Source: Bacteroidales bacterium (GTDB lineage: Bacteria > Bacteroidota > Bacteroidia > Bacteroidales > WRLA01). From it: DNA of 64,000 nucleotides. Position 1 is the first letter of the stretch. Each line of letters starts with the position of its first letter. The position numbers were made by a program, and so were the translations under genes. Positions 2,293-62,525 of the stretch are shown piece after piece. The stretch lies in the NCBI GenBank assembly GCA_009777825.1, contig WRLA01000003.1:4898-68897 (forward strand). The letters are read 5' to 3'. The notes beneath the pieces are model-generated. The model was not told the DNA's origin. It ran no database searches and was given only the letters and a program-made list of their open reading frames with translations.

Positions 2293-5133
2293 CCCCATCG
2301 CCTTCCCCGTATGCGACCCCTCGCAGAGCATCAGTTCGTCAGGTGTTCCGGCGAAGAGCAGATGTCCGCCGTCGTGTCCGCCTTCGGGACCGAGGTCAAT
2401 GATCCAGTCTGCCGTTTTGATGACTTCCATGTTGTGTTCGATGACGATGACGGAGTGTCCTTTGTCTATCAGGGCGTTGAGCGAGTGGAGCAGTTTGCTG
2501 ATGTCGTGGAAATGGAGACCGGTGGTTGGTTCGTCGAAGATAAACAGGGTTGGGCTGTAGTTGGATTTGGAGAGGAAGTAGGCGAGTTTCACCCGTTGCG
2601 CCTCGCCGCCGGAGAGGGTGGCGGTGGACTGTCCGAGTTTCAGGTAGCCCAAGCCGGTGTTTTGGAGGGCGTGCAGTTTTTCCAAGATATGTTTCACGTG
2701 GCTGTTTTTCTCCGGTTCCTGATGGAAAAAGTCTATCACCTCGTCAATGGTTTTTTCCAACAGTTCGGAGATGTTGACGTCGCGGTATTTCACATCCAAG
2801 ACCTCCTGTTTAAACCGTTTCCCGTTACATTCCTGACACTCCAACCAGACGTCCGCCATAAACTGCATCTCGATTTTTATTTTCCCTTCCCCTTCGCACA
2901 CTTCGCAGCGTCCGCCGGGGACGTTGAAAGAGAAAAATCCCGGTTTATAGCCCCGTGTCTTGGAGAGCGGTTGGATGGCGTAGAGGTTTCGTATCTCGTC
3001 GTAGGCGCCGATGTAGGTCGCCGGATTGGAACGGCTGGAGCGTCCGATGGGGTTTTGGTCAACTAATTCCACGTTGCTGATGCGTGCCGTGCTGCCTTCG
3101 ATGGTGCGGTGCGTTCCGGTATGTTCGTCGCAGGAGTCGAACAGTTTTTTCAGAGCCGGATACAAAATCTGTTTCACCAATGTCGTTTTCCCCGAGCCGG
3201 AGACGCCGCTGACGACGGTTAAGGTGTTCAATGGAAAGGTAACGTCAATATTTTTAAGATTGTGTTCTTGAGCGCCGACGACGGTGATGTATTCGTTCCA
3301 TTTTCGACGGACAGAAGGCGTGGCAACGGTCAACGACCGCGAGAGATATTGCGCCGTAAGGCTTTTTTTCGTCTTCAGCAGGTTGGGCAACGTTCCCGAA
3401 AAGACGACCTCGCCGCCGAGATAACCTGCCAACGGTCCGATGTCAATAATCTGGTCGGCGGTGCGGATGATCTCTTCATCGTGTTCAACCACTACGACGG
3501 TGTTTCCCAAGTCGCGCAACTTTTTCAGCAATCGGATAAGCCGTTGGGTGTCTCGCGAGTGCAGCCCGACGCTGGGTTCGTCCAAAACATAGATAGAACC
3601 GACCAAATTACTTCCCAGCGACGTCGCCAACTGAATCCGCTGCGACTCTCCGCCCGACAAGGTGTTCGACAGGCGGTTGAGCGTCAGATAGCCCAATCCG
3701 ATGTCGTACAGAAACTCCAACCGTTTGACAATTTCAACCATCAGGCGTTCCGATATTTGCCGTTCATAATCGTCTAACGGAATGGTTTGGAACGTTTTAT
3801 ACAGTTGGTCAATCGGCATCTGCACCATGTCGCTGATGGTCATTCCCGCAATCTTCACGTAGTTGGCTTCTTTGCGCAGTCGCGTTCCCTTGCAGTCGGG
3901 ACAGGTGGTTTTGCCCTGATAACGCGCCTGCATGACGCGGTATTGGATTTTATGCATGTTGTCCGTTACCATTTTGAAAAAGTCGTCAATGCCTTCGAGT
4001 TCCGGAGCGCCTTGCCACAGCAGTTGTTTCTGTTCCGGCGTCAGTTCAAAATAGGGGCGATGTATCGGAAAGTGGTATGCCGCCGCCTCTCTGATGAAAT
4101 CATTCCGCCACGTGCCCATCGTAGGACCCCGCCACGGCGCTACGGCGCCTTCATAAATCGACATCCTCTTATCGGGAATCACCAAATCCTCGTCAATGCC
4201 GATGACCGAGCCGAAACCGTCGCACCGTTTACAGGCGCCGTAAGGATTGTTAAACGAAAAAAGATGCTCCGTAGGCTCTTCAAACACGATGCCGTCCGCC
4301 TCGAAACGGTTGGAAAAGGTGTGGCGTTTATATCCATCCGGTACGGTTTCAGTATCCATAAGACCGTCTTCTTTCTGGGGATTGCGGGTCAAGCCCGCAA
4401 TGACGGGGGAGGTTTCAACATCCACAATGCAACTTCCTTTTCCCTCGTAGAAAGCGCTTTGGACGGAGTCGGAACAGCGCGACATGAGGTCGTTGTCTTT
4501 CTTGAGCGACAGACGGTCAATGACGATATAAATTTGATTTTTTTCGGTGATATGGGAAAAATCCTGCGGAACGTCAATTCTTACCTGCTGACCGTCAACC
4601 ATTAAGCGGGAAAAACCCTGTTGCAGCAAGAGTTGGAAATGTTCATTGACGGAACGCTCTTTCAACGTAATGGGCGCGAGAATGAGCAACCGTGTGTTGT
4701 CGGGAAATGAAAAGATGAAATCCGTAACGTTGCTCACGGAGTCGTATTTCACCAATGCTCCCGAAACGGGCGAGTAGGTCTTTCCGATGCGGGCAAAGAG
4801 CAGTTTCAGGTATTCGTAAACCTCTGTCGAGGTGCCGACGGTGCTACGCGGATTGCGGGTGTTGACGTGCTGCTGGATGGCAACGGTCGGCGAAATGCCG
4901 GTGATGGATTCCACTTCGGGCTTGTTGATGCGTCCCAGAAACTGACGCGCATAAGCACTCAGGCTCTCTACATAACGACGCTGTCCTTCGGCATAGAGGG
5001 TGTCGAAAGCCAAGGTGGACTTTCCCGAACCGCTCAATCCAGTGATTACCACCAACTTATTGCGTTCAATCTCGACGTCAATATGTTTGAGGTTGTTCTG
5101 ATGGGCGCCTTTGATGATGATGTTATTTTGCAT
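2251..5133 (-). CDS. uvrA: Excinuclease ABC subunit A
   Basis: GLSGSGKSTLAFDTLYAEGQRRYVESLS, two LSGGE signatures, Zn fingers. Confidence 0.98.
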   Translation of the reverse strand: MQNNIIIKGAHQNNLKHIDVEIERNKLVVITGLSGSGKSTLAFDTLYAEGQRRYVESLSAYARQFLGRINKPEVESITGISPTVAIQQHVNTRNPRSTVGTSTEVYEYLKLLFARIGKTYSPVSGALVKYDSVSNVTDFIFSFPDNTRLLILAPITLKERSVNEHFQLLLQQGFSRLMVDGQQVRIDVPQDFSHITEKNQIYIVIDRLSLKKDNDLMSRCSDSVQSAFYEGKGSCIVDVETSPVIAGLTRNPQKEDGLMDTETVPDGYKRHTFSNRFEADGIVFEEPTEHLFSFNNPYGACKRCDGFGSVIGIDEDLVIPDKRMSIYEGAVAPWRGPTMGTWRNDFIREAAAYHFPIHRPYFELTPEQKQLLWQGAPELEGIDDFFKMVTDNMHKIQYRVMQARYQGKTTCPDCKGTRLRKEANYVKIAGMTISDMVQMPIDQLYKTFQTIPLDDYERQISERLMVEIVKRLEFLYDIGLGYLTLNRLSNTLSGGESQRIQLATSLGSNLVGSIYVLDEPSVGLHSRDTQRLIRLLKKLRDLGNTVVVVEHDEEIIRTADQIIDIGPLAGYLGGEVVFSGTLPNLLKTKKSLTAQYLSRSLTVATPSVRRKWNEYITVVGAQEHNLKNIDVTFPLNTLTVVSGVSGSGKTTLVKQILYPALKKLFDSCDEHTGTHRTIEGSTARISNVELVDQNPIGRSSRSNPATYIGAYDEIRNLYAIQPLSKTRGYKPGFFSFNVPGGRCEVCEGEGKIKIEMQFMADVWLECQECNGKRFKQEVLDVKYRDVNISELLEKTIDEVIDFFHQEPEKNSHVKHILEKLHALQNTGLGYLKLGQSTATLSGGEAQRVKLAYFLSKSNYSPTLFIFDEPTTGLHFHDISKLLHSLNALIDKGHSVIVIEHNMEVIKTADWIIDLGPEGGHDGGHLLFAGTPDELMLCEGSHTGKAMGDVRFEMGDLRCAI
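4379..4405. repeat. Palindromic element (CGTCATTGCG family) in frame in uvrA
   Basis: ATTGCGGG-tcaag-CCCGCAAT hairpin plus GACG tail; translated as PVIAGLTRNP. Confidence 0.8.
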
Positions 5134-12549: not shown

Positions 12550-15500
12550 TTACGATTTCAACGCTTTTATCTGCTCTTCGATGACGAGGATACGGGCTTC
12601 GGCGTCGGTCTTTTTCTTGCGCTCGCTTTCTAAGACTTTTTCGGGGGCGTTGTTGACAAAACGTTCATTATTAAGTTTTTGCATAACGCTTGTTAAGAAA
12701 CCTTTGGTGTATTCCAACTCTTTGGTCAACTTTTCTATCTCTTCCGCTTTGTTGACGCTTTTGCTGATGGGGATAAAAAATTCGGTCGAACGGACGATGA
12801 ACGGAATACAGTTTTCGGGTTTGGTATCCAAGTATTCTATCTTGCTGATATTGCACAGTTTAGCGATGACGCTGTCGAAAGGCGATGGTTGCGTTTCGTT
12901 GCTCTTTTTGATAAACAGTTCTATCGCTTCTTTGTTGAGAATGTTGCGTTGGGCGCGTTGGGTGCGGATGGCAACGATGACCTCTGTGACATAATCGAAC
13001 TTTCTAAGTATCTCATTGTCAAAAGACTCCACAGCGGGCATGTCCGATACCATGATACTTTCGCCCTCTTTGCGTTGGCGGAGCCATTGCCAGATCTCTT
13101 CCGTGAGAAACGGCATAAACGGGTGCAGGAGGCGCATCAGACGGTCGAAAAAGTCTGTCGTCGCTTCCAACGTCTGCACGTCTATCGGCTGTTGATACGC
13201 CGGTTTTATGATTTCCAAATACCACGAGCAGAAATCGTCCCAAATCAGTTTGTAAATGGTCATGAGCGCATCCGAGATACGGAATTTCTCAAAATGGTCG
13301 TTGACCTCGGCGATGGCGGAGTGCAACCTGTTGCCAAACCACAGTATCGCCGTTTTGGAACTCTCCGGCTGCGCTGTCCGGGCGTCGCTCTCCCATCCTT
13401 TTACCAAACGGAAGGCGTTCCATATTTTGTTACAGAAGTTGCGCCCCTGTTCCACTTGCGATTCGTCGAAGAGGATGTCGTTGCCGGCAGCCGAGCAGAG
13501 CAACATGCCCATACGGACGCCGTCGGCGCTGTATTGGTTCATCAACACAATCGGGTCAGGGGAGTTGCCCAGCGACTTGGACATCTTCCGTCCCAACTTA
13601 TCACGGACGATGCCGGTGAAATAGACATTGCGGAAGCAGCGTTGATTGCGGTATTCGTAACCCGCCATGATCATACGCGCCACCCAGAAAAAGATGATTT
13701 CGGGCGCCGTGACCAAGTCGTTGGTCGGGTAATAATATTTAATCTCGTCGTTGTCGGGATTGTTGATGCCGTCAAAAACGGAGAGGGGCCACAGCCAACT
13801 CGAAAACCATGTATCCAAGCAGTCGTCATCCTGACGGAGGTCTTGCAACCGAAGGGCAGGATTACCGCTTTTTTCTCTTGCCGCTGCCAATGCTTTCTCC
13901 GGCGTCTCGGCTACCACATAGCCGCCTTCGGGAAGATAATACGCCGGAATACGATGCCCCCACCACAACTGACGCGAAATACACCAGTCTTTGATGTTTT
14001 CCATCCAGTGGCGGTAGGTGTTTTTGAACTTTGCGGGATGAAACATGACGTCGTCTTCCATAACGGCGTCAAAAGCCGGTTTCGCCATCTCTCCCATCTT
14101 CAAAAACCACTGCATAGACAACTTCGGCTCGATAGGAACATCCGTCCGCTCGGAAAAACCCACGTTGTTGACGTATGGCTCGACTTTCTCCATCAGACCG
14201 GCGGCAATCAAGTCCTGCTCGATTTGCTTGCGTACTTCAAACCTGTCCATCCCTTCGTACTGCAAACCGTGCTTGTTGAGCGTGCCATCATCATTGAAGA
14301 TGTCAATGGATTCGAGATTGTATTTCTCGCCCAACATGTAGTCGTTCACATCGTGCGCCGGCGTTACTTTCAGACAGCCCGTACCAAACTCCATGTCCAC
14401 ATACTCATCTTCAATAATCGGAACTTCGCGATTGGCAATCGGGACAATCACCCGTTTGCCTTTCAGATGAGCAGTTTTAGGGTCATTGGGATTGATGCAA
14501 ACGGCGGTGTCACCCAATATTGTCTCGGGACGGGTGGTGGCAACAATAACAGCCCCCCCAAGCCCCCCCGAAGGGGGGGATGTGCGGAGCCATCCTCGCT
14601 CTGCATTATCAGATTTTTCTAAAATTTGTTCATTATTGAGAGCATTTGCTGTCAAATATCCATGTTCATCGTGTGTGTTCCTCACACCCCCCCTTTCGGG
14701 GGGGCTTGGGGGGGCTGCTAACCTTTCTTTAATCCGCCCTAACACCTCATCCGGATTTTCCAAAACCTCTTCATTTGTAAACCGTACAACGCTATACCCG
14801 TGGCTTTCAAGATATTCTGTTCTGATTTTGTCTGCTTTTTGAATTTCAGGGTCATTGTGATAGCCGCCGTCCACTTCAATAACCAACTTGTGACGAAGTG
14901 AAACAAAATCAACTATAACATCGCCAATAATATGTTGCCGTCTAAATTTTTCATCCAGATTTTTTCCACGCAACATTTCCCAAAGCGCACTTTCTGCCAC
15001 CGTCGAAAACTTACGCATATTTTGCGCATGTTCTTTCAGCAATCCATAATTGATAGCATTTGCTGTTAAATATCCATATCCATCGTGTGTGTTTCTCACA
15101 CCCCCCCCTTCGGGGGGGCTTGGGGGGGCTATGTTATACCGCAAGTAATACAACTTCCCCTGTTGTTCCTTATAGTTCACCTCTTCGTCGGAGAGGGCGG
15201 TTTTTGCTGCGGGGTCCCAGTTGACCATGCGCACGCCGCGATAGACCAACCCTTTCTTGTAAAGGTCAACAAAGGCTTTGATAACGCTTTCGGAACGGGC
15301 GTCGTCCATGGTAAAGCAGGTGCGTTCCCAGTCGCACGACGCTCCCAACTTTTTCAACTGTTCGAGGATGATGCCGCCGTGTTTGTGTGTCCAGTCCCAG
15401 GCGTGTTCCAAAAACTGTTCGCGGGTGAGGTCGGACTTTTTTACTCCTTCCTGTGCCAATTTGGCGACCACTCTGGCTTCGGTGGCAATGGAGGCGTGGT

Positions 15501-15741
15501 CGGTGCCGGGGACCCAGCAGGCGTTTTTGCCTGTCATGCGGGCGCGTCGCACCAATACATCCTGAATGGTGTTGTTTAGCATGTGTCCCATGTGCAGGAC
15601 GCCGGTTACGTTGGGCGGCGGAATGACGATAGTGTAAGGCTCGCGACCATCGGGAACAGAACGGAAAAAACCGTGCTTCATCCAATAGTCATACCATTTA
15701 TTCTCAACCTGTTCGGGTGCGTATTTTGAAGGAATGTCCAT
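12550..15741 (-). CDS. valS: Valine--tRNA ligase with ~193-aa in-frame insertion
   Basis: [38 protein letters not shown]-terminal coiled coil. Confidence 0.98.
14551..15130 (-). mobile_element. DUF559 (Vsr-like) endonuclease element with 29-bp perfect inverted repeats, in frame in valS
   Basis: AGCCCCCCCAAGCCCCCCCGAAGGGGGGG at both ends, inverted; [46 protein letters not shown]. Confidence 0.88.
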
Positions 15742-17062: not shown

Positions 17063-17320
17063 ATGGCAGAAATATCACGATTTTATGGTATAATCATTGC
17101 GATGTTTGGCAATGAACATAATCCACCACATTTTCATATAAAATATGGTCATTACAAAGCCATATATACGATAAAGAATGGTGTAATAAAAGGAGAAGTT
17201 CCAATAAGTGTTATAAAAAAAGTAATTGAATGGGTGGAAATTCACCAAGATGAATTATATCAAAATTGGGAACTGTTAAAAAATGGAAAAGATACAAATA
17301 AAATAAAACCTTTAAAATAA
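17063..17320 (+). CDS. DUF4160 protein (putative TA component)
   Basis: ISRFYGIIIAMF..EHNPPHFH..W..IKPL. Confidence 0.88.
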   Translation: MAEISRFYGIIIAMFGNEHNPPHFHIKYGHYKAIYTIKNGVIKGEVPISVIKKVIEWVEIHQDELYQNWELLKNGKDTNKIKPLK

Positions 17321-17325
17321 TTTTT

Positions 17326-17568
17326 ATGAACGATATAGATTTATTAAGAGTAGTTGATGTAGAATATATTAAAGATTTTACAATGCGGTTAGAGTTTAGT
17401 GATGGGGAAATAAAAACAATAGACTTTTTGCCGTTATTAAAAGGTAAGATGTATGAACCATTAAAAAGCAGGGAAAATTTTATTCAATTTGGATTAACAG
17501 ATTGGACTTTAGAATGGTACAATGGTGTAGATTTTGCACCTGAATACCTTTATGAAGTTGGAATTTAA
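17326..17568 (+). CDS. DUF2442 protein (putative TA component)
   Basis: V.YIKDF.MRLEFSDGE..W.NGVDFAPEYLY. Confidence 0.88.
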   Translation: MNDIDLLRVVDVEYIKDFTMRLEFSDGEIKTIDFLPLLKGKMYEPLKSRENFIQFGLTDWTLEWYNGVDFAPEYLYEVGI

Positions 17569-17588: not shown

Positions 17589-18857
17589 TTACAACAGCGA
17601 CAGCCTGTTAGCATCCTGTTTGATAAAGATAAACAGCAGGATGGTGAAACCCAGCAACGACGACCCGCCGTAACTGAAAAACGGCAACGGGATGCCGATG
17701 ACCGGAAGCAGTCCGAGCACCATTCCGATGTTGACGGTGATATGAAAAGCCAGAATGGACGCCACGCAATAGCCATATATCCGGGCAAAGGCGGAGCGCT
17801 GTCGCTCGGCGTTGCGGATGATGCGTAGAATCAGGAAAGCGAAGCATCCGACGACTAAGAAACTTCCGACAAATCCATACTCTTCGCCTACGGTGCAGAA
17901 GATAAAGTCGGTATTTTGTTCGGGGACGAAGTTGTATTTTGTCTGTGTGCCTTGCAGGAAGCCCTTTCCGCTGACGCCGCCCGAACCGATGGCAATCAAC
18001 GATTGATTCACGTTATAGCCGGCTTTTTTCAGGTCGGTTTCGATACCCAGCAGCACGTTGATACGGGTTTGCTGGTAGTCGCTCAGAAAGGTTGTGAACG
18101 CCTTATGCGCAACAAAGACAAATCCCGCACAGAACGCCGCCGTCAGGATGGTATTTCTGATGCTTTTCCATCGGTGCGACGAGAAAAAGAACCACCAAAG
18201 CAGTGCGACGGAAGATATGACGATGATGGTTATCTTCTCGCCCAACAGCAACGTAAGGACAAAAAGCACGACGGCGATAATCGGAAACAGTATCAGCCGT
18301 CCATCCATCCCTTCGCGGTACATGGCGATAAAAAGCGCAAAGTAAACCAATGCCGTTCCTGTGTCATTTTGCAGGATGATGAGTCCGACGGGCAGCAGGA
18401 GGATAAGGATGGAAACTATCAGCGTATCCATCTTTTTCGGTGCAAAAGAGTGGGTGGAGAGGTATTTAGCCAAAGCCAGCGCCGTCGCCCATTTGAACAG
18501 TTCTCCCGGCTGCATCGAAAATTGACCGATTTTTATCCATGCGTTAGCGCCCTTTATATCACTTCCGAACGGAAAGACGCTTAACAAAGCGAGTATCGCC
18601 AGAATATAAAACACCCACGCAAAAGAGGTGAACAGTTTGGCGTCTAATAACAGAATGACAAAAGCGGTAACAACGGCAATGAGAATGAAGATCGCCTGTT
18701 TCCCGTAGTCGCAGTCGAGGCTTAAGATAGAGCGATGCGTCTCGTCGTAAACGGCGGCATAGATGGAGATCCATCCGGCAAACACCATCAGCAGATAGAG
18801 GATGATCAACATCCAGTCCACGTTGGCAAAAAAACTCTTTTGTTCTCTTTCTCTCAT
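17589..18857 (-). CDS. rodA: Rod shape-determining protein RodA
   Basis: SEDS family: QPGE, QNDTGT, GYNVNQSLIAIGSGG, PEQNTDFIF, PFFSYGGSS. Confidence 0.95.
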   Translation of the reverse strand: MREREQKSFFANVDWMLIILYLLMVFAGWISIYAAVYDETHRSILSLDCDYGKQAIFILIAVVTAFVILLLDAKLFTSFAWVFYILAILALLSVFPFGSDIKGANAWIKIGQFSMQPGELFKWATALALAKYLSTHSFAPKKMDTLIVSILILLLPVGLIILQNDTGTALVYFALFIAMYREGMDGRLILFPIIAVVLFVLTLLLGEKITIIVISSVALLWWFFFSSHRWKSIRNTILTAAFCAGFVFVAHKAFTTFLSDYQQTRINVLLGIETDLKKAGYNVNQSLIAIGSGGVSGKGFLQGTQTKYNFVPEQNTDFIFCTVGEEYGFVGSFLVVGCFAFLILRIIRNAERQRSAFARIYGYCVASILAFHITVNIGMVLGLLPVIGIPLPFFSYGGSSLLGFTILLFIFIKQDANRLSLL

Positions 18858-44332: not shown

Positions 44333-44437
44333 CGTCATTGCGAGGAGGAACGACGAAGCAATCCAGAGTAATTCTCTGTGAAACTCCGTGCTCTCTCCCC
44401 CTTTGGGGGAGCCGGAGGGGGCTGTCTCTGTGCTGAA
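44333..44437. repeat. Three-family nested repeat cluster
   Basis: CGTCATTGCGAG..GCAATCC (44333-44364), then a CTCTGTG..CTCTGTGCTGAA half containing CTCCCCCTTTGGGGGAGCCGGAGGGGG (44395-44421). Confidence 0.8.
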
Positions 44438-60626: not shown

Positions 60627-62525
60627 TCACATCTCTCGTTTATACCAAAAGAACCGTCTCTGTTGTTCCGCCCGTTCCTCTTTTGTTTTAGCGCAATAGA
60701 CCGGTTTTTCCGAATAGGGGTCGTAGCCGGAGTAGTATATCGTTGAGGCTAAGGTCATGGGGGTGGGCGTAAAGCCCTGTACCTGTTCCAAGCGGTAGCC
60801 CAACTTCTTCGTCTTTTGCATCAGCAGATCCATATCTTGCAGGCGACAGGCGGGGAGGGAGGCGATGAAGTAGGGAATCAGTTGAAAGCGTTTCCCGTGT
60901 TTTCTGTTCAAGGCATCGAACTGCTGTTTCAGCGCCTCAAAGAGCGCAAATGGCGGCTTTCGGACTAACCTCAGCACTTCGCCGGAGACATGTTCGGGCG
61001 CTACTTTGAGTCGTCCGCCGGTGTGATGCAGGAACAGTTCCTCGAAATAGTCGTTGTGGCGGTATTCTTTCGCTTTCTCTTTCGGCATATTCATAAAGAG
61101 GTCGTAACGGATGCCGCTGCCGATAAAGACGTGCGGTACCATCTCGCGGACGGTGCGATAGAGGTCGATCAGGGCGCTGTGGTTGCAGTCCAAGTTAGGA
61201 CAAACCTTCGGATATAAACAACTCGGCTTGTTACATTTAGCGCAGACGGACAAGTTTTTCCCCTTCATCCCATACATATTCGCCGACGGACCGCCCAAGT
61301 CGGTAATCGTCCCTTTGAAGTCGGGCATCGCCCGCACCTGTTCCACCTCTTGTAAGATAGACGCTTTCGAGCGGCTTACAATCGCTTTCCCCTGATGCAT
61401 GGAGATGGTGCAGAAACTGCATCCGCCGAAGCACCCGCGATGGATATTTATCGAATGGCGAATCATGTTATACGCCGGAATGTCGCCGCGACTGCGATAT
61501 TTCGGATGCGGCATCCGTGTAAACGGCAACGCATGGACGGCATCCAACTCCGCCGTCGTCATCGCGCCGTACGGCGGATTGACCACCACTGCTCCATCCC
61601 CAACCCTCTGCACAATAACACGAGAATGAACCACATTCGACAACTCCTCCACCACCCGAAAAGCCCGCGCAAAGTAATTCCTCCCCTTTGGAGGCTTGTG
61701 CGAAAACGCTGTGTTTTCGTCATTGCGAGCGTAGCGAAACAATCCAGAGCATTGTTTTTCACTGGATTGCTTCGGGCTATCGCCCTCGCAATGACGTCGC
61801 TGCTCACTTTTCACACAATATTGAGGAGGTAGGGGCAGGCAGCACAACTCGTGCGATGGCAACACAACAGCGTCATCATACTCCACATCTTTGGATAGGA
61901 ATGCCGTTTGCGGGATTGTCCGTTTTATCTCATCGAAAGTTCCGCCATTTTTCAACTTTGCCACTAACTCGCGTACCCCCTTTTCGCCCATGCCATATAT
62001 CAGCAAATCCGCCTGGCTGTCAACCAAGATGGAAGGCATCACCGTATCGCTCCAGTAGTCGTAGTGCGAAAAGCGTCGCATGGAGGCTTCGATGCCGCCG
62101 ATGACCACCGGAACGTCGGGGAAGAGCCGTTTCAGTATCTTGGAATAGACCGTTGTGGCGTAGTCAGGACGGAAGCCGGCTTTGTTGCCGGGCGTGTAGG
62201 CGTCGTCGGAGCGCAGGCGTTTGTTGGCGGTGTAGTGGTCTACCATGGAATCCATGCAGCCCGCTGTTACGCCGAAGAAGAGGCGTGGTCGTCCTAATTT
62301 GGAGAAGTCGCGCAGGTCATCTTGCCAGTTCGGCTGCGGGACGATGGCAACCCTCAGCCCCTCCGCCTCAAGGACGCGCCCGATGACGGCATGTCCGAAA
62401 GAGGGATGGTCAACGTAAGCATCCCCCGAAAAGAGGATGACATCTAAGTCATCCCAGCCGCGGGATTCGACTTCTTTCTTTGTTGTTGGAAGCCAGTGGT
62501 TGATGTTTAAATGTTGTGTTGACAA
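60627..62525 (-). CDS. YgiQ-family radical SAM protein with ~50-aa repeat-derived insertion
   Basis: SGDAYVDHPSFG, RGCFGGCSFC, DLGGPSANMY, LKVAPEH, FTPTPMT. Confidence 0.93.
   Translation of the reverse strand: MSTQHLNINHWLPTTKKEVESRGWDDLDVILFSGDAYVDHPSFGHAVIGRVLEAEGLRVAIVPQPNWQDDLRDFSKLGRPRLFFGVTAGCMDSMVDHYTANKRLRSDDAYTPGNKAGFRPDYATTVYSKILKRLFPDVPVVIGGIEASMRRFSHYDYWSDTVMPSILVDSQADLLIYGMGEKGVRELVAKLKNGGTFDEIKRTIPQTAFLSKDVEYDDAVVLPSHELCCLPLPPQYCVKSEQRRHCEGDSPKQSSEKQCSGLFRYARNDENTAFSHKPPKGRNYFARAFRVVEELSNVVHSRVIVQRVGDGAVVVNPPYGAMTTAELDAVHALPFTRMPHPKYRSRGDIPAYNMIRHSINIHRGCFGGCSFCTISMHQGKAIVSRSKASILQEVEQVRAMPDFKGTITDLGGPSANMYGMKGKNLSVCAKCNKPSCLYPKVCPNLDCNHSALIDLYRTVREMVPHVFIGSGIRYDLFMNMPKEKAKEYRHNDYFEELFLHHTGGRLKVAPEHVSGEVLRLVRKPPFALFEALKQQFDALNRKHGKRFQLIPYFIASLPACRLQDMDLLMQKTKKLGYRLEQVQGFTPTPMTLASTIYYSGYDPYSEKPVYCAKTKEERAEQQRRFFWYKREM
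61681..61835. mobile_element. Triple-nested palindromic insertion in frame in the YgiQ gene
   Basis: Outer CTCCCCTTTGGAGG..GAGGTAGGGG; middle TTGTGCGAAAA/TTTTCACACAA; inner CGTCATTGCGAG/CTCGCAATGACG doublet at 61718-61796. Confidence 0.8.

Follow-up and report, generated by a model that had tools for sequence, protein, structure and literature searches.

A DUF559 nuclease domain with GC-rich hairpin ends inserted in frame in valS of a Bacteroidales bacterium, and related inserts in other Bacteroidota genes

Inteins lie in frame in essential genes, are translated together with the host protein and often carry a homing endonuclease. In these respects they resemble the insert described here, a DUF559 nuclease domain bounded by GC-rich hairpins and located within valS, the valyl-tRNA synthetase (ValRS) gene of a Bacteroidales bacterium. 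The gene lies on contig WRLA01000003.1 of assembly GCA_009777825.1, in a stretch of 64,000 nucleotides (positions 4,898 to 68,897) that was analysed as a whole and is referred to as the window; positions given without a contig label are window positions. Unlike inteins, the valS insert has neither a HINT domain nor the characteristic junction residues, and it is predicted to remain in the protein.

The inserted nuclease has the Vsr-like fold in common with the 'EDxHD' homing endonuclease genes, such as that of I-Bth0305I (PMC3239194). Like the valS element, these genes lie inside conserved genes, occur sporadically and follow a cycle of invasion, fixation and decay; the valS insert, too, is found sporadically at a single site of its conserved host gene, and close relatives have that site empty. 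However, the 'EDxHD' nucleases described there are either housed in inteins or group I introns or stand free, and they are spliced out, whereas the valS nuclease would stay in its host protein; they also carry NUMOD/HTH DNA-binding regions. Terminal hairpin repeats and dispersed derivatives without a nuclease further distinguish the valS-element family from these homing genes.

Among published concepts, the nearest one found concerns actinophage methylases, whose ShiLan domain (PMC11855218) is also an in-frame, homing-like insertion that is neither intein nor intron, is read through and is predicted to loop out. Its HNH nuclease is encoded out of frame in an overlapping open reading frame (ORF), whereas the valS nuclease is an in-frame domain of another superfamily, and neither hairpin repeats at the termini nor dispersed derivatives are mentioned in the ShiLan abstract. 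Rickettsia palindromic elements (RPEs) and other intragenic miniature transposable elements with inverted repeats (MITEs; PMC10969869) are, like the hairpins considered here, short palindromes that lie in frame in many genes and encode fold-compatible peptides. RPEs are ~150 bp long, have no enzyme and occur in a different host phylum, whereas the valS family consists of 36-nt or 119-166-bp units and a nuclease-bearing copy; the review never mentions 'Bacteroid' or 'endonuclease'.

As commonly described, REPIN-RAYT systems resemble the valS system in having a single-copy nuclease gene flanked by inverted palindromic repeats, with dispersed singlets and doublets of the repeat that are missing from relatives lacking the gene. 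RAYT is a relative of HUH/Y1 transposases, whereas the valS enzyme is a PD-(D/E)xK nuclease, and repetitive extragenic palindromes (REPs) are extragenic, whereas the valS hairpins lie mostly inside open reading frames. The studied genome has an enzyme gene bounded by an inverted palindrome that recurs genome-wide, but no HUH/Y1 gene flanked by this hairpin. The GC clusters and double-hairpin elements of fungal mitochondria are also mobile GC-rich hairpins that can lie in coding sequence and accompany mobile endonuclease ORFs fused in frame to host genes; they are organellar, their nucleases are of the LAGLIDADG or GIY-YIG type, and no homology to the valS family is implied. With MITEs and transposons bounded by terminal inverted repeats, the valS element shares such repeats and non-autonomous copies, but its sole encoded protein is DUF559 and not a transposase of a known family, and target-site duplications were absent from the two junctions compared. 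In the literature searched, of which coverage was partial so that an earlier description is possible, no account of in-frame DUF559 elements was found, and none of the titles listed for papers containing 'DUF559' concerns them.

The valS insert, its nuclease domain and its hairpins

The assembly is metagenome-derived, 69% complete and consists of 90 contigs. It is labelled G000 below; G001 and G002 are congeners, G003 and G006 belong to the same family, and G009 to the same order. A single valS locus was detected in the assembly by tblastn with both ValRS halves, and its product matched the Pfam families tRNA-synt_1 (E = 1.9e-123), Anticodon_1 and Val_tRNA-synt_C, with a class I core, anticodon-binding region, C-terminal arm and editing domain. 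The insert (Table 1) follows the residues YYLRYNI and lies just ahead of the ATTRPET motif, at the start of the editing domain. The initial annotation had placed it there and had stated that homologues have only a short loop; in all five relatives compared (G001, G002, G003, G006 and G009) a 7-residue loop alone occupies this point. The alignment of valS from close relatives that it had suggested thus identified empty sites in these five genomes, and also in G008. Its length of 580 bp was corrected to 579 nt, since the extra base belongs to the repeat arm. The insert contains no stop codon in the valS frame, while its two alternative frames have 9 and 17; when the 74 codons outside the nuclease domain were shuffled, the frame stayed open in just 3.3% of shuffles.

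Table 1. Features of the valS locus (window positions) and hairpins at the T9SS junction (contig labels and positions).
Feature	Position	Strand	Basis or remark
valS, valyl-tRNA synthetase, host of the insert	12550..15741	minus	ORF of 1063 aa and Pfam
Complete in-frame insert, 193 codons, 579 nt	14551..15129	minus	7-residue loop there in relatives
DUF559 / Vsr-like PD-(D/E)xK nuclease domain, ValRS aa 236-341	14719..15036	minus	Pfam PF04480
Upstream terminal hairpin (coding orientation), translated	15094..15130	minus	Arm of inverted repeat
Downstream terminal hairpin (coding orientation), translated	14551..14584	minus	Arm of inverted repeat
86-nt direct repeat, copy 1, holding the internal third hairpin, translated	14631..14716	minus	Repeat search
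86-nt direct repeat, copy 2, which makes up the element's upstream end (hairpin and sub-terminal sequence, ...YGYLTANA)	15045..15130	minus	Matches copy 1 at 92% identity
138-nt (46-codon) nested in-frame addition	14590..14727	minus	Missing from the otherwise collinear L170 element
T9SS-junction hairpins	C8:39515, C12:18159, C12:23722, C16:13860, C19:7400, C20:34719		
T9SS-junction hairpins, continued	C24:21876, C33:2262, C41:20953, C43:17616, C44:8221, C1:58866		

The DUF559/Vsr-like domain is complete, as had been proposed, with all active-site residues present and a PF04480 match at E = 1.2e-32 (112.4 bits against a curated cut-off of 20.6). It is the sole DUF559 in the G000 assembly according to both tblastn and a genome-wide Pfam HMM search. 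PDB entry 3HRL matched the domain at E = 1.6e-17, and an AlphaFold2 (AF2) model of the domain (pLDDT 90, pTM 0.84) adopted a Vsr-like alpha/beta nuclease fold. Foldseek matches to this model included 3HRL (TM 0.84, target-normalised), 3R3P and 1CW0; by rank, 3HRL was followed by the catalytic domain of I-Bth0305I (E = 2e-5) and then by Vsr. Large-subunit proteins of the Toxoplasma and Tetrahymena mitochondrial ribosomes were also among the structural matches (E 3e-3 to 2e-2). The whole-protein prediction for ValRS was poor (mean pLDDT 59.7, with linkers 207-245 and 344-395 below 50); it was used solely for the linker scores and is not evidence of function.

Residues D278, E289, D291, H295 and D304 are all intact in the G000 insert. 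The first four are invariant across 40/40 ValRS inserts, and D57, E68, D70, H74 and D83 (segment numbering) are invariant in 52/52 non-degenerate domains. By analogy with PMC3239194, and not by superposition, the conserved residues may correspond to D51/H69/D97 of Vsr. With its catalytic residues and both ends intact, the G000 copy still looks active.

Of the seven families that Pfam returned in ValRS at E ≤ 0.01, none belongs to the HINT or intein type. Ala is the first residue of the insert and Gly-Ala are its last two, the next host residue being Val, and the same is true of relatives. An intein was therefore ruled out, and the ORF, the Pfam content and the junction residues together uphold the earlier description of an in-frame insert devoid of intein features. 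A group I/II intron or other RNA family was also ruled out, as a permissive Rfam scan of positions 14300-15400 gave only three chance-level matches (E 0.36-0.87), none of which was an intron.

The GC-rich inverted repeat annotated at the insert ends was recovered as two 34-nt arms (14551-14584 and 15097-15130) complementary at 33/34 positions (97%). Each end is built as C7-AAG-C7-GAA-G7. Three copies of the core motif CCCCCCGAAGGGGGG lie in the window, versus none in each of 100 shuffles. Instead of the two hairpin copies originally counted in the insert, three are present, the core of the third being located at 14688-14715 (C3:19585-19612) with one mismatch. The two copies of the 86-nt direct repeat bracket the nuclease body, so that the insert is composite; the nested addition and the downstream hairpin form a 166-bp MITE-like unit (14551-14716). 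In the frames used, the hairpins encode Pro/Ser/Gly-rich linkers, e.g. APPSPPEGG... In an RNA fold, base pairing between the two ends of the insert gives a stem longer than 30 bp, by which the entire insert is closed (z = −7.5 relative to 20 shuffles). DNA folding of single hairpins gave stabilities not clearly above those of same-composition shuffles (z −0.75 to −2.3).

Hairpins were counted genome-wide using a 28-nt core and allowing up to 3 mismatches. The G000 assembly contains 42 copies (19 forward, 23 reverse), 21 of them perfect, whereas each of 40 relatives, both congeners included, has none; a reversed-pattern control also returned none. As many as 35/42 copies are located inside stop-free frames of at least 250 aa. 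The hairpin unit is 36 nt long, and its core lacks T on one strand and A on the other, which makes it stop-free in all six frames. Two reading frames dominate in genes, one per orientation, and one of them gives APPSPPEGG(D/G)VR. Single 36-nt hairpins are far commoner than two-ended units, of which five occur outside valS among the 42 copies. An acyltransferase fusion protein (C18:28495-28609) contains, in frame, a 119-bp two-ended unit, a short version of the 166-bp unit.

The AhcY gene (S-adenosylhomocysteine hydrolase, C51:8049-8076) carries an exact 12-aa/36-nt hairpin insert between the ...KY and KPL(A/N)GARI motifs that is missing in 5/5 relatives; with 3 mismatches, this hairpin has diverged and is thus older. 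For a hairpin-bearing NuoF-like gene (C13:8140) the relatives are probably paralogues, and hence no clean empty site could be defined. Approximately 13 of the 42 hairpins share one junction, directly before the VYPNPTSG start of the C-terminal sorting domains of the type IX secretion system (T9SS; Table 1). Their carriers are about a dozen very large proteins with open frames of 361-4331 aa. The seemingly intergenic or gene-edge hairpins at C9:38790, C2:14005-14577, C69:11243 and C10:29838 adjoin tandem 7-mers (ATGTGCG / ATGTGAG), which extend the last bases of the 36-nt unit.

Related inserts in other genes and genomes

A search of a 5.8-billion-protein collection (sequences of 339-2000 aa, E ≤ 1e-5) yielded 2063 long proteins with a related domain out of 3546 candidates. 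According to Pfam content and source names, the hosts among the 120 proteins listed were ValRS, LeuRS, IleRS, MetH, PurL, MurC and a polysaccharide-synthesis protein, with ValRS carriers in Paludibacter, Prevotella, Dysgonomonas, Draconibacterium and Tangfeifania. In named genomes, the domain lay within an open frame of at least 300 aa at 45/63 loci. Hosts were assigned by blastp for 42 of these 45 loci: 29 LeuRS, five IleRS, five MetH, two ValRS and one MurC. Further hosts recognised by Pfam were guanylate kinase, chorismate synthase, MnmE and DegT aminotransferase, as well as the restriction-modification proteins HsdM, other DNA methylases, and Type ISP and Eco57I-like enzymes. Of 401 genomes sampled from the order, 139 had a DUF559 match (E ≤ 1e-8); stop-free frames of at least 300 aa hold 36 of the 150 matches listed from this sample, which gave 89 further matches.

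The insertion points in ValRS and LeuRS are equivalent, both immediately preceding the TTRP(E/D)T motif, and almost all in-frame copies are bracketed by translated hairpins, e.g. SPL.KGG and S.P.GG.(E/L)G(G/A). The scan for repeat-flanked DUF559 genes that the initial annotation had recommended did reveal an association: strong flanking GC-rich inverted repeats were found at 24/74 DUF559 loci versus 1/74 displaced controls. In many genomes, the flanking repeats are species-specific in sequence and similar to the valS hairpin in architecture. The repeat flanking DUF559 in genome G010 is dispersed there in ~20 copies, whereas four other genomes have essentially none.

Six Bacteroidales ValRS proteins (P0020, P0028, P0031, P0040, P0061 and P0115) contain extra hairpin-type peptides at other positions, including APSNSPEGGEQ..., HPSLGGAGGG, PLSPPEGGSWG and PPTPSEGGGE, which suggests that translated hairpin inserts are common in the order. 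One LeuRS gene (L147, G219:C12:10097-11103) has two DUF559 matches separated by ~300 nt, both within long open frames, which looks like a double insertion, tandem or nested. The LeuRS insert of a contig labelled as a Citrobacter freundii metagenome-assembled genome (L080, QFQQ01000076.1) clusters with Chitinophagaceae copies, and the contig is probably mis-binned.

Several comparisons bear on mobility. The valS site is filled in G000 and empty in its congeners G001 and G002; it is also filled in G155 and empty in its congener G008, with flanks 92% and 83% identical. Among the matches listed, a valS insert occurs in 3/401 genomes of the order (G000, G083 and G155), which belong to three families. 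Between ileS of Psychroflexus planctonicus and P. salis, synonymous divergence (dS) was 0.068 for the insert versus 1.29 for the host, and nucleotide identity was 95-100% in the insert versus 80-88% in the flanks. For Paludibacter-type metH, dS was 0.24 in the insert versus 1.42 in the host. In a tree of 98 domains (quick maximum-likelihood search), the ValRS inserts formed one clade (support 91) adjoining the IleRS inserts; the LeuRS inserts required 10 changes, and free-standing ORFs and in-frame copies were interleaved, as were copies from different host genes.

Purifying selection acts on the inserts (omega 0.05-0.22). In 22 Flavobacteriaceae LeuRS inserts (Tenacibaculum, Polaribacter), D291 and H295 have been lost through an 8-residue deletion; these inserts are fixed, have no flanking inverted repeats and show omega of 0.07-0.12. 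Fixation with eroded repeats, which the initial annotation had named as an observation that would speak against a selfish element, is therefore real in Tenacibaculum and Polaribacter LeuRS, whereas the valS insert of G000 is patchy in distribution and has intact ends.

The ValRS closest to that of G000 is encoded by a metagenome contig (L170), with 85.2% identity outside the insert versus 79.4% for G001. It carries the element at the same valS site without the 138-nt nested piece, a repeat unit gained in the G000 lineage since the split from L170. Between G000 and L170, host dS was 1.19, while the domains were 73.7% identical with saturated dS; these values place the element before the G000/L170 split, with vertical transmission since. 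The ends were identical at 37/37 nt upstream and 33/34 nt downstream, and the chance of at most one synonymous difference in them at the divergence of the host is ~1e-7. Such near-identity despite the host divergence indicates that the ends are conserved as DNA or RNA and not merely as linker peptides. They may be either cis-acting sites or sequences homogenised with a repeat family of constant consensus.

Proposed explanation and alternatives

With moderate confidence, we interpret the valS insert as a selfish DUF559 nuclease-plus-hairpin element that belongs to a widespread Bacteroidota family and persists as a tolerated domain insertion. The initial annotation had also proposed a selfish nuclease-plus-repeat element; its non-intein nature, its dispersed repeat and its homing-like relatives support that proposal, while the element proved to be a member of a widespread family and not a one-off. 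It is a small nuclease gene without its own start and stop, bounded by inverted GC-rich hairpins, which occupies a loop on the surface of the essential ValRS and, judging by its sequence, is transcribed and translated as part of it. As the hairpin ends encode Pro/Ser/Gly-rich linkers, the nuclease would fold as a tethered extra domain and ValRS would stay functional; splicing would not be needed, and from its sequence the insert is predicted to stay in mature ValRS. The nuclease might break an unoccupied site or a hairpin, with recombinational repair copying the element in, and homing might take place between genomes at the same gene site. We infer that the nuclease spreads the hairpins: units without a nuclease (166 bp and 119 bp) and 36-nt hairpins would be mobilised in trans and persist in frame, being translated with their host genes. 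Once an element is fixed, its nuclease and repeats would decay, and the domain would be kept as part of an essential protein.

A more far-reaching proposal is made only tentatively, namely that these elements constitute a distinct class of mobile element, in which a DUF559 nuclease and its cognate hairpins exist as translated, non-splicing in-frame inserts in essential genes and the nuclease works while fused to its host. Such a class, widespread in Bacteroidota, might also include mobilised 36-nt 'coding hairpins', a protein-coding counterpart of REPIN-RAYT, and a homing-like life cycle; we hold this possible but still short of probable. If true, selfish nuclease genes would be able to persist unspliced in essential genes by supplying ends that are free of stops and encode linkers, which would add a third solution to those of introns and inteins. 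This would account for the oversized proteins of Bacteroidota, thousands in number, that are annotated as ordinary enzymes (aminoacyl-tRNA synthetases, MetH, PurL, MurC and restriction-modification proteins), as well as one source of short Pro/Gly/Ser inserts in Bacteroidota proteomes. The ~120-aa enzyme and the 34-36-nt hairpin offer a testable pair of nuclease and cis site. The inserts also show where class I synthetases naturally tolerate the insertion of a domain, and they provide a marker for annotators of mobile DNA hidden inside genes.

A number of observations weigh against the interpretation as a selfish element that spreads hairpins. The link between nuclease and hairpin is correlational, and within the genus it comes from one 69%-complete genome. 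Hairpin copy number does not always track the nuclease: the insert ends of G083 and G036 have few or no further copies in their genomes, and the G010 DUF559 examined (L036, C10) is free-standing and has an internal stop in its domain although its repeats are numerous. The ~13 T9SS-junction hairpins may not be independent insertions, as repetition of one junction might stem from target preference or from gene conversion between paralogous genes. In the comparison of sequences, the G000 copy looks vertically inherited since before the L170 split and not like a recent arrival, and no co-conversion tract was detected around it in 34-codon windows against G001. No target-site duplication was found at the two junctions examined, those of AhcY and of G155/G008 valS. 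Dead copies are equally constrained, so that the purifying selection shows a folding constraint and not nuclease activity. We know of no PD-(D/E)xK nuclease that alone transposes DNA or copies 36-nt units, and the copying of single 36-nt hairpins is thus unexplained.

The hairpins could instead form an independent REP-like family spread by another enzyme or by replication or repair errors, with DUF559 being a passenger or a homing nuclease that landed in or near the repeats. The excess of single hairpins over two-ended units fits this view, as do the presence in G000 of two Y1_Tnp genes and of two further repeat families without a nuclease of their own in the assembly; insertion sequences are reported to target REPs, and G008 has G155-type hairpins despite its empty valS site. 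We nevertheless regard it as unlikely. One of the Y1_Tnp genes has its own distinct repeat and neither is flanked by the valS hairpin, and G008 has other DUF559 copies. Moreover, the ends of the nuclease match the family consensus and are conserved between species far beyond neutral expectation, and in many genomes the repeats that flank DUF559 loci are species-specific but share this architecture. This conservation of the ends at the nucleotide level, beyond the need of a linker peptide, also argues against a domesticated or tolerated fossil, i.e., an immobile insert kept by its embedding or by a gained host function (DNA repair or defence tethered to ValRS). The age of the element, which predates a split with dS > 1, would agree with a fossil, and so would the host-like omega (about 0.05-0.1) shared by dead copies, the fixation across Tenacibaculum and Polaribacter LeuRS and the missing co-conversion tract. 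However, true fossils lose the catalytic residues that all ValRS inserts retain, and the nested unit gained since the split, the 21 perfect repeat copies and the patchiness among congeners make this alternative improbable.

Removal of the insert before or during expression, by DNA or RNA excision or by ribosomal bypass, would yield mature ValRS without it. The long terminal stem had been annotated as a possible basis for excision at the RNA or DNA level, and the ends do pair as RNA. Yet the frame is open in G000, which few shuffles of the non-domain codons achieved, and in every in-frame relative examined; purifying selection acts in the host frame in many genomes, Rfam yielded no intron or ribozyme match, and the matched take-off and landing codons of a bypass are absent from the sequence. 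Excision is therefore considered highly improbable. An assembly or binning artefact might be suspected from the incompleteness and fragmentation of the metagenome-assembled genome, but its probability is negligible, given that an independent metagenome contig has this element at the identical site, that the ValRS of the named isolates Tangfeifania diversioriginum and Dysgonomonas sp. ZJ709 also contains it, and that the insert is exactly in frame.

Other repeat families and RAYT-like genes of the genome

Repeats at 44395-44421 and 61681-61835 had been taken for kin of the valS hairpin, but they belong to two other families. The former (44395-44424) represents a second hairpin family with the structure CTCCCCC-TTT-GGGGGAG-CC-GGAGGGGGC, a three-run architecture like that of the valS hairpin. 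It gave 11 matches in the genome, one being a copy of the first family, which leaves ~10 copies of its own. Its similarity to the valS element of G155, a member of another genus, reaches 90-97% at the downstream end of that element; no second DUF559 was found in the G000 assembly. The repeat at 61681-61835 is a composite built on a third family (GTCATTGCGAG...CTCGCAATGAC) with ~50 BLAST hits genome-wide, and it is unrelated to the valS hairpin.

Two RAYT-like Y1_Tnp (PF01797) genes are present in G000, on contigs C41 and C24. Neither has a valS hairpin within 500 nt, and RAYT was therefore rejected as the mobilising enzyme. The gene at C24:17374-17718 has its own palindromic repeats on both sides (17270-17340 and 17960-18050, of the GGGCAACGCCC and AGGGCGACATCA types) and with them is a separate REP-RAYT-like system. 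The second Y1_Tnp gene (C41:19574-19912) adjoins an apparent tRNA gene, as judged by eye.

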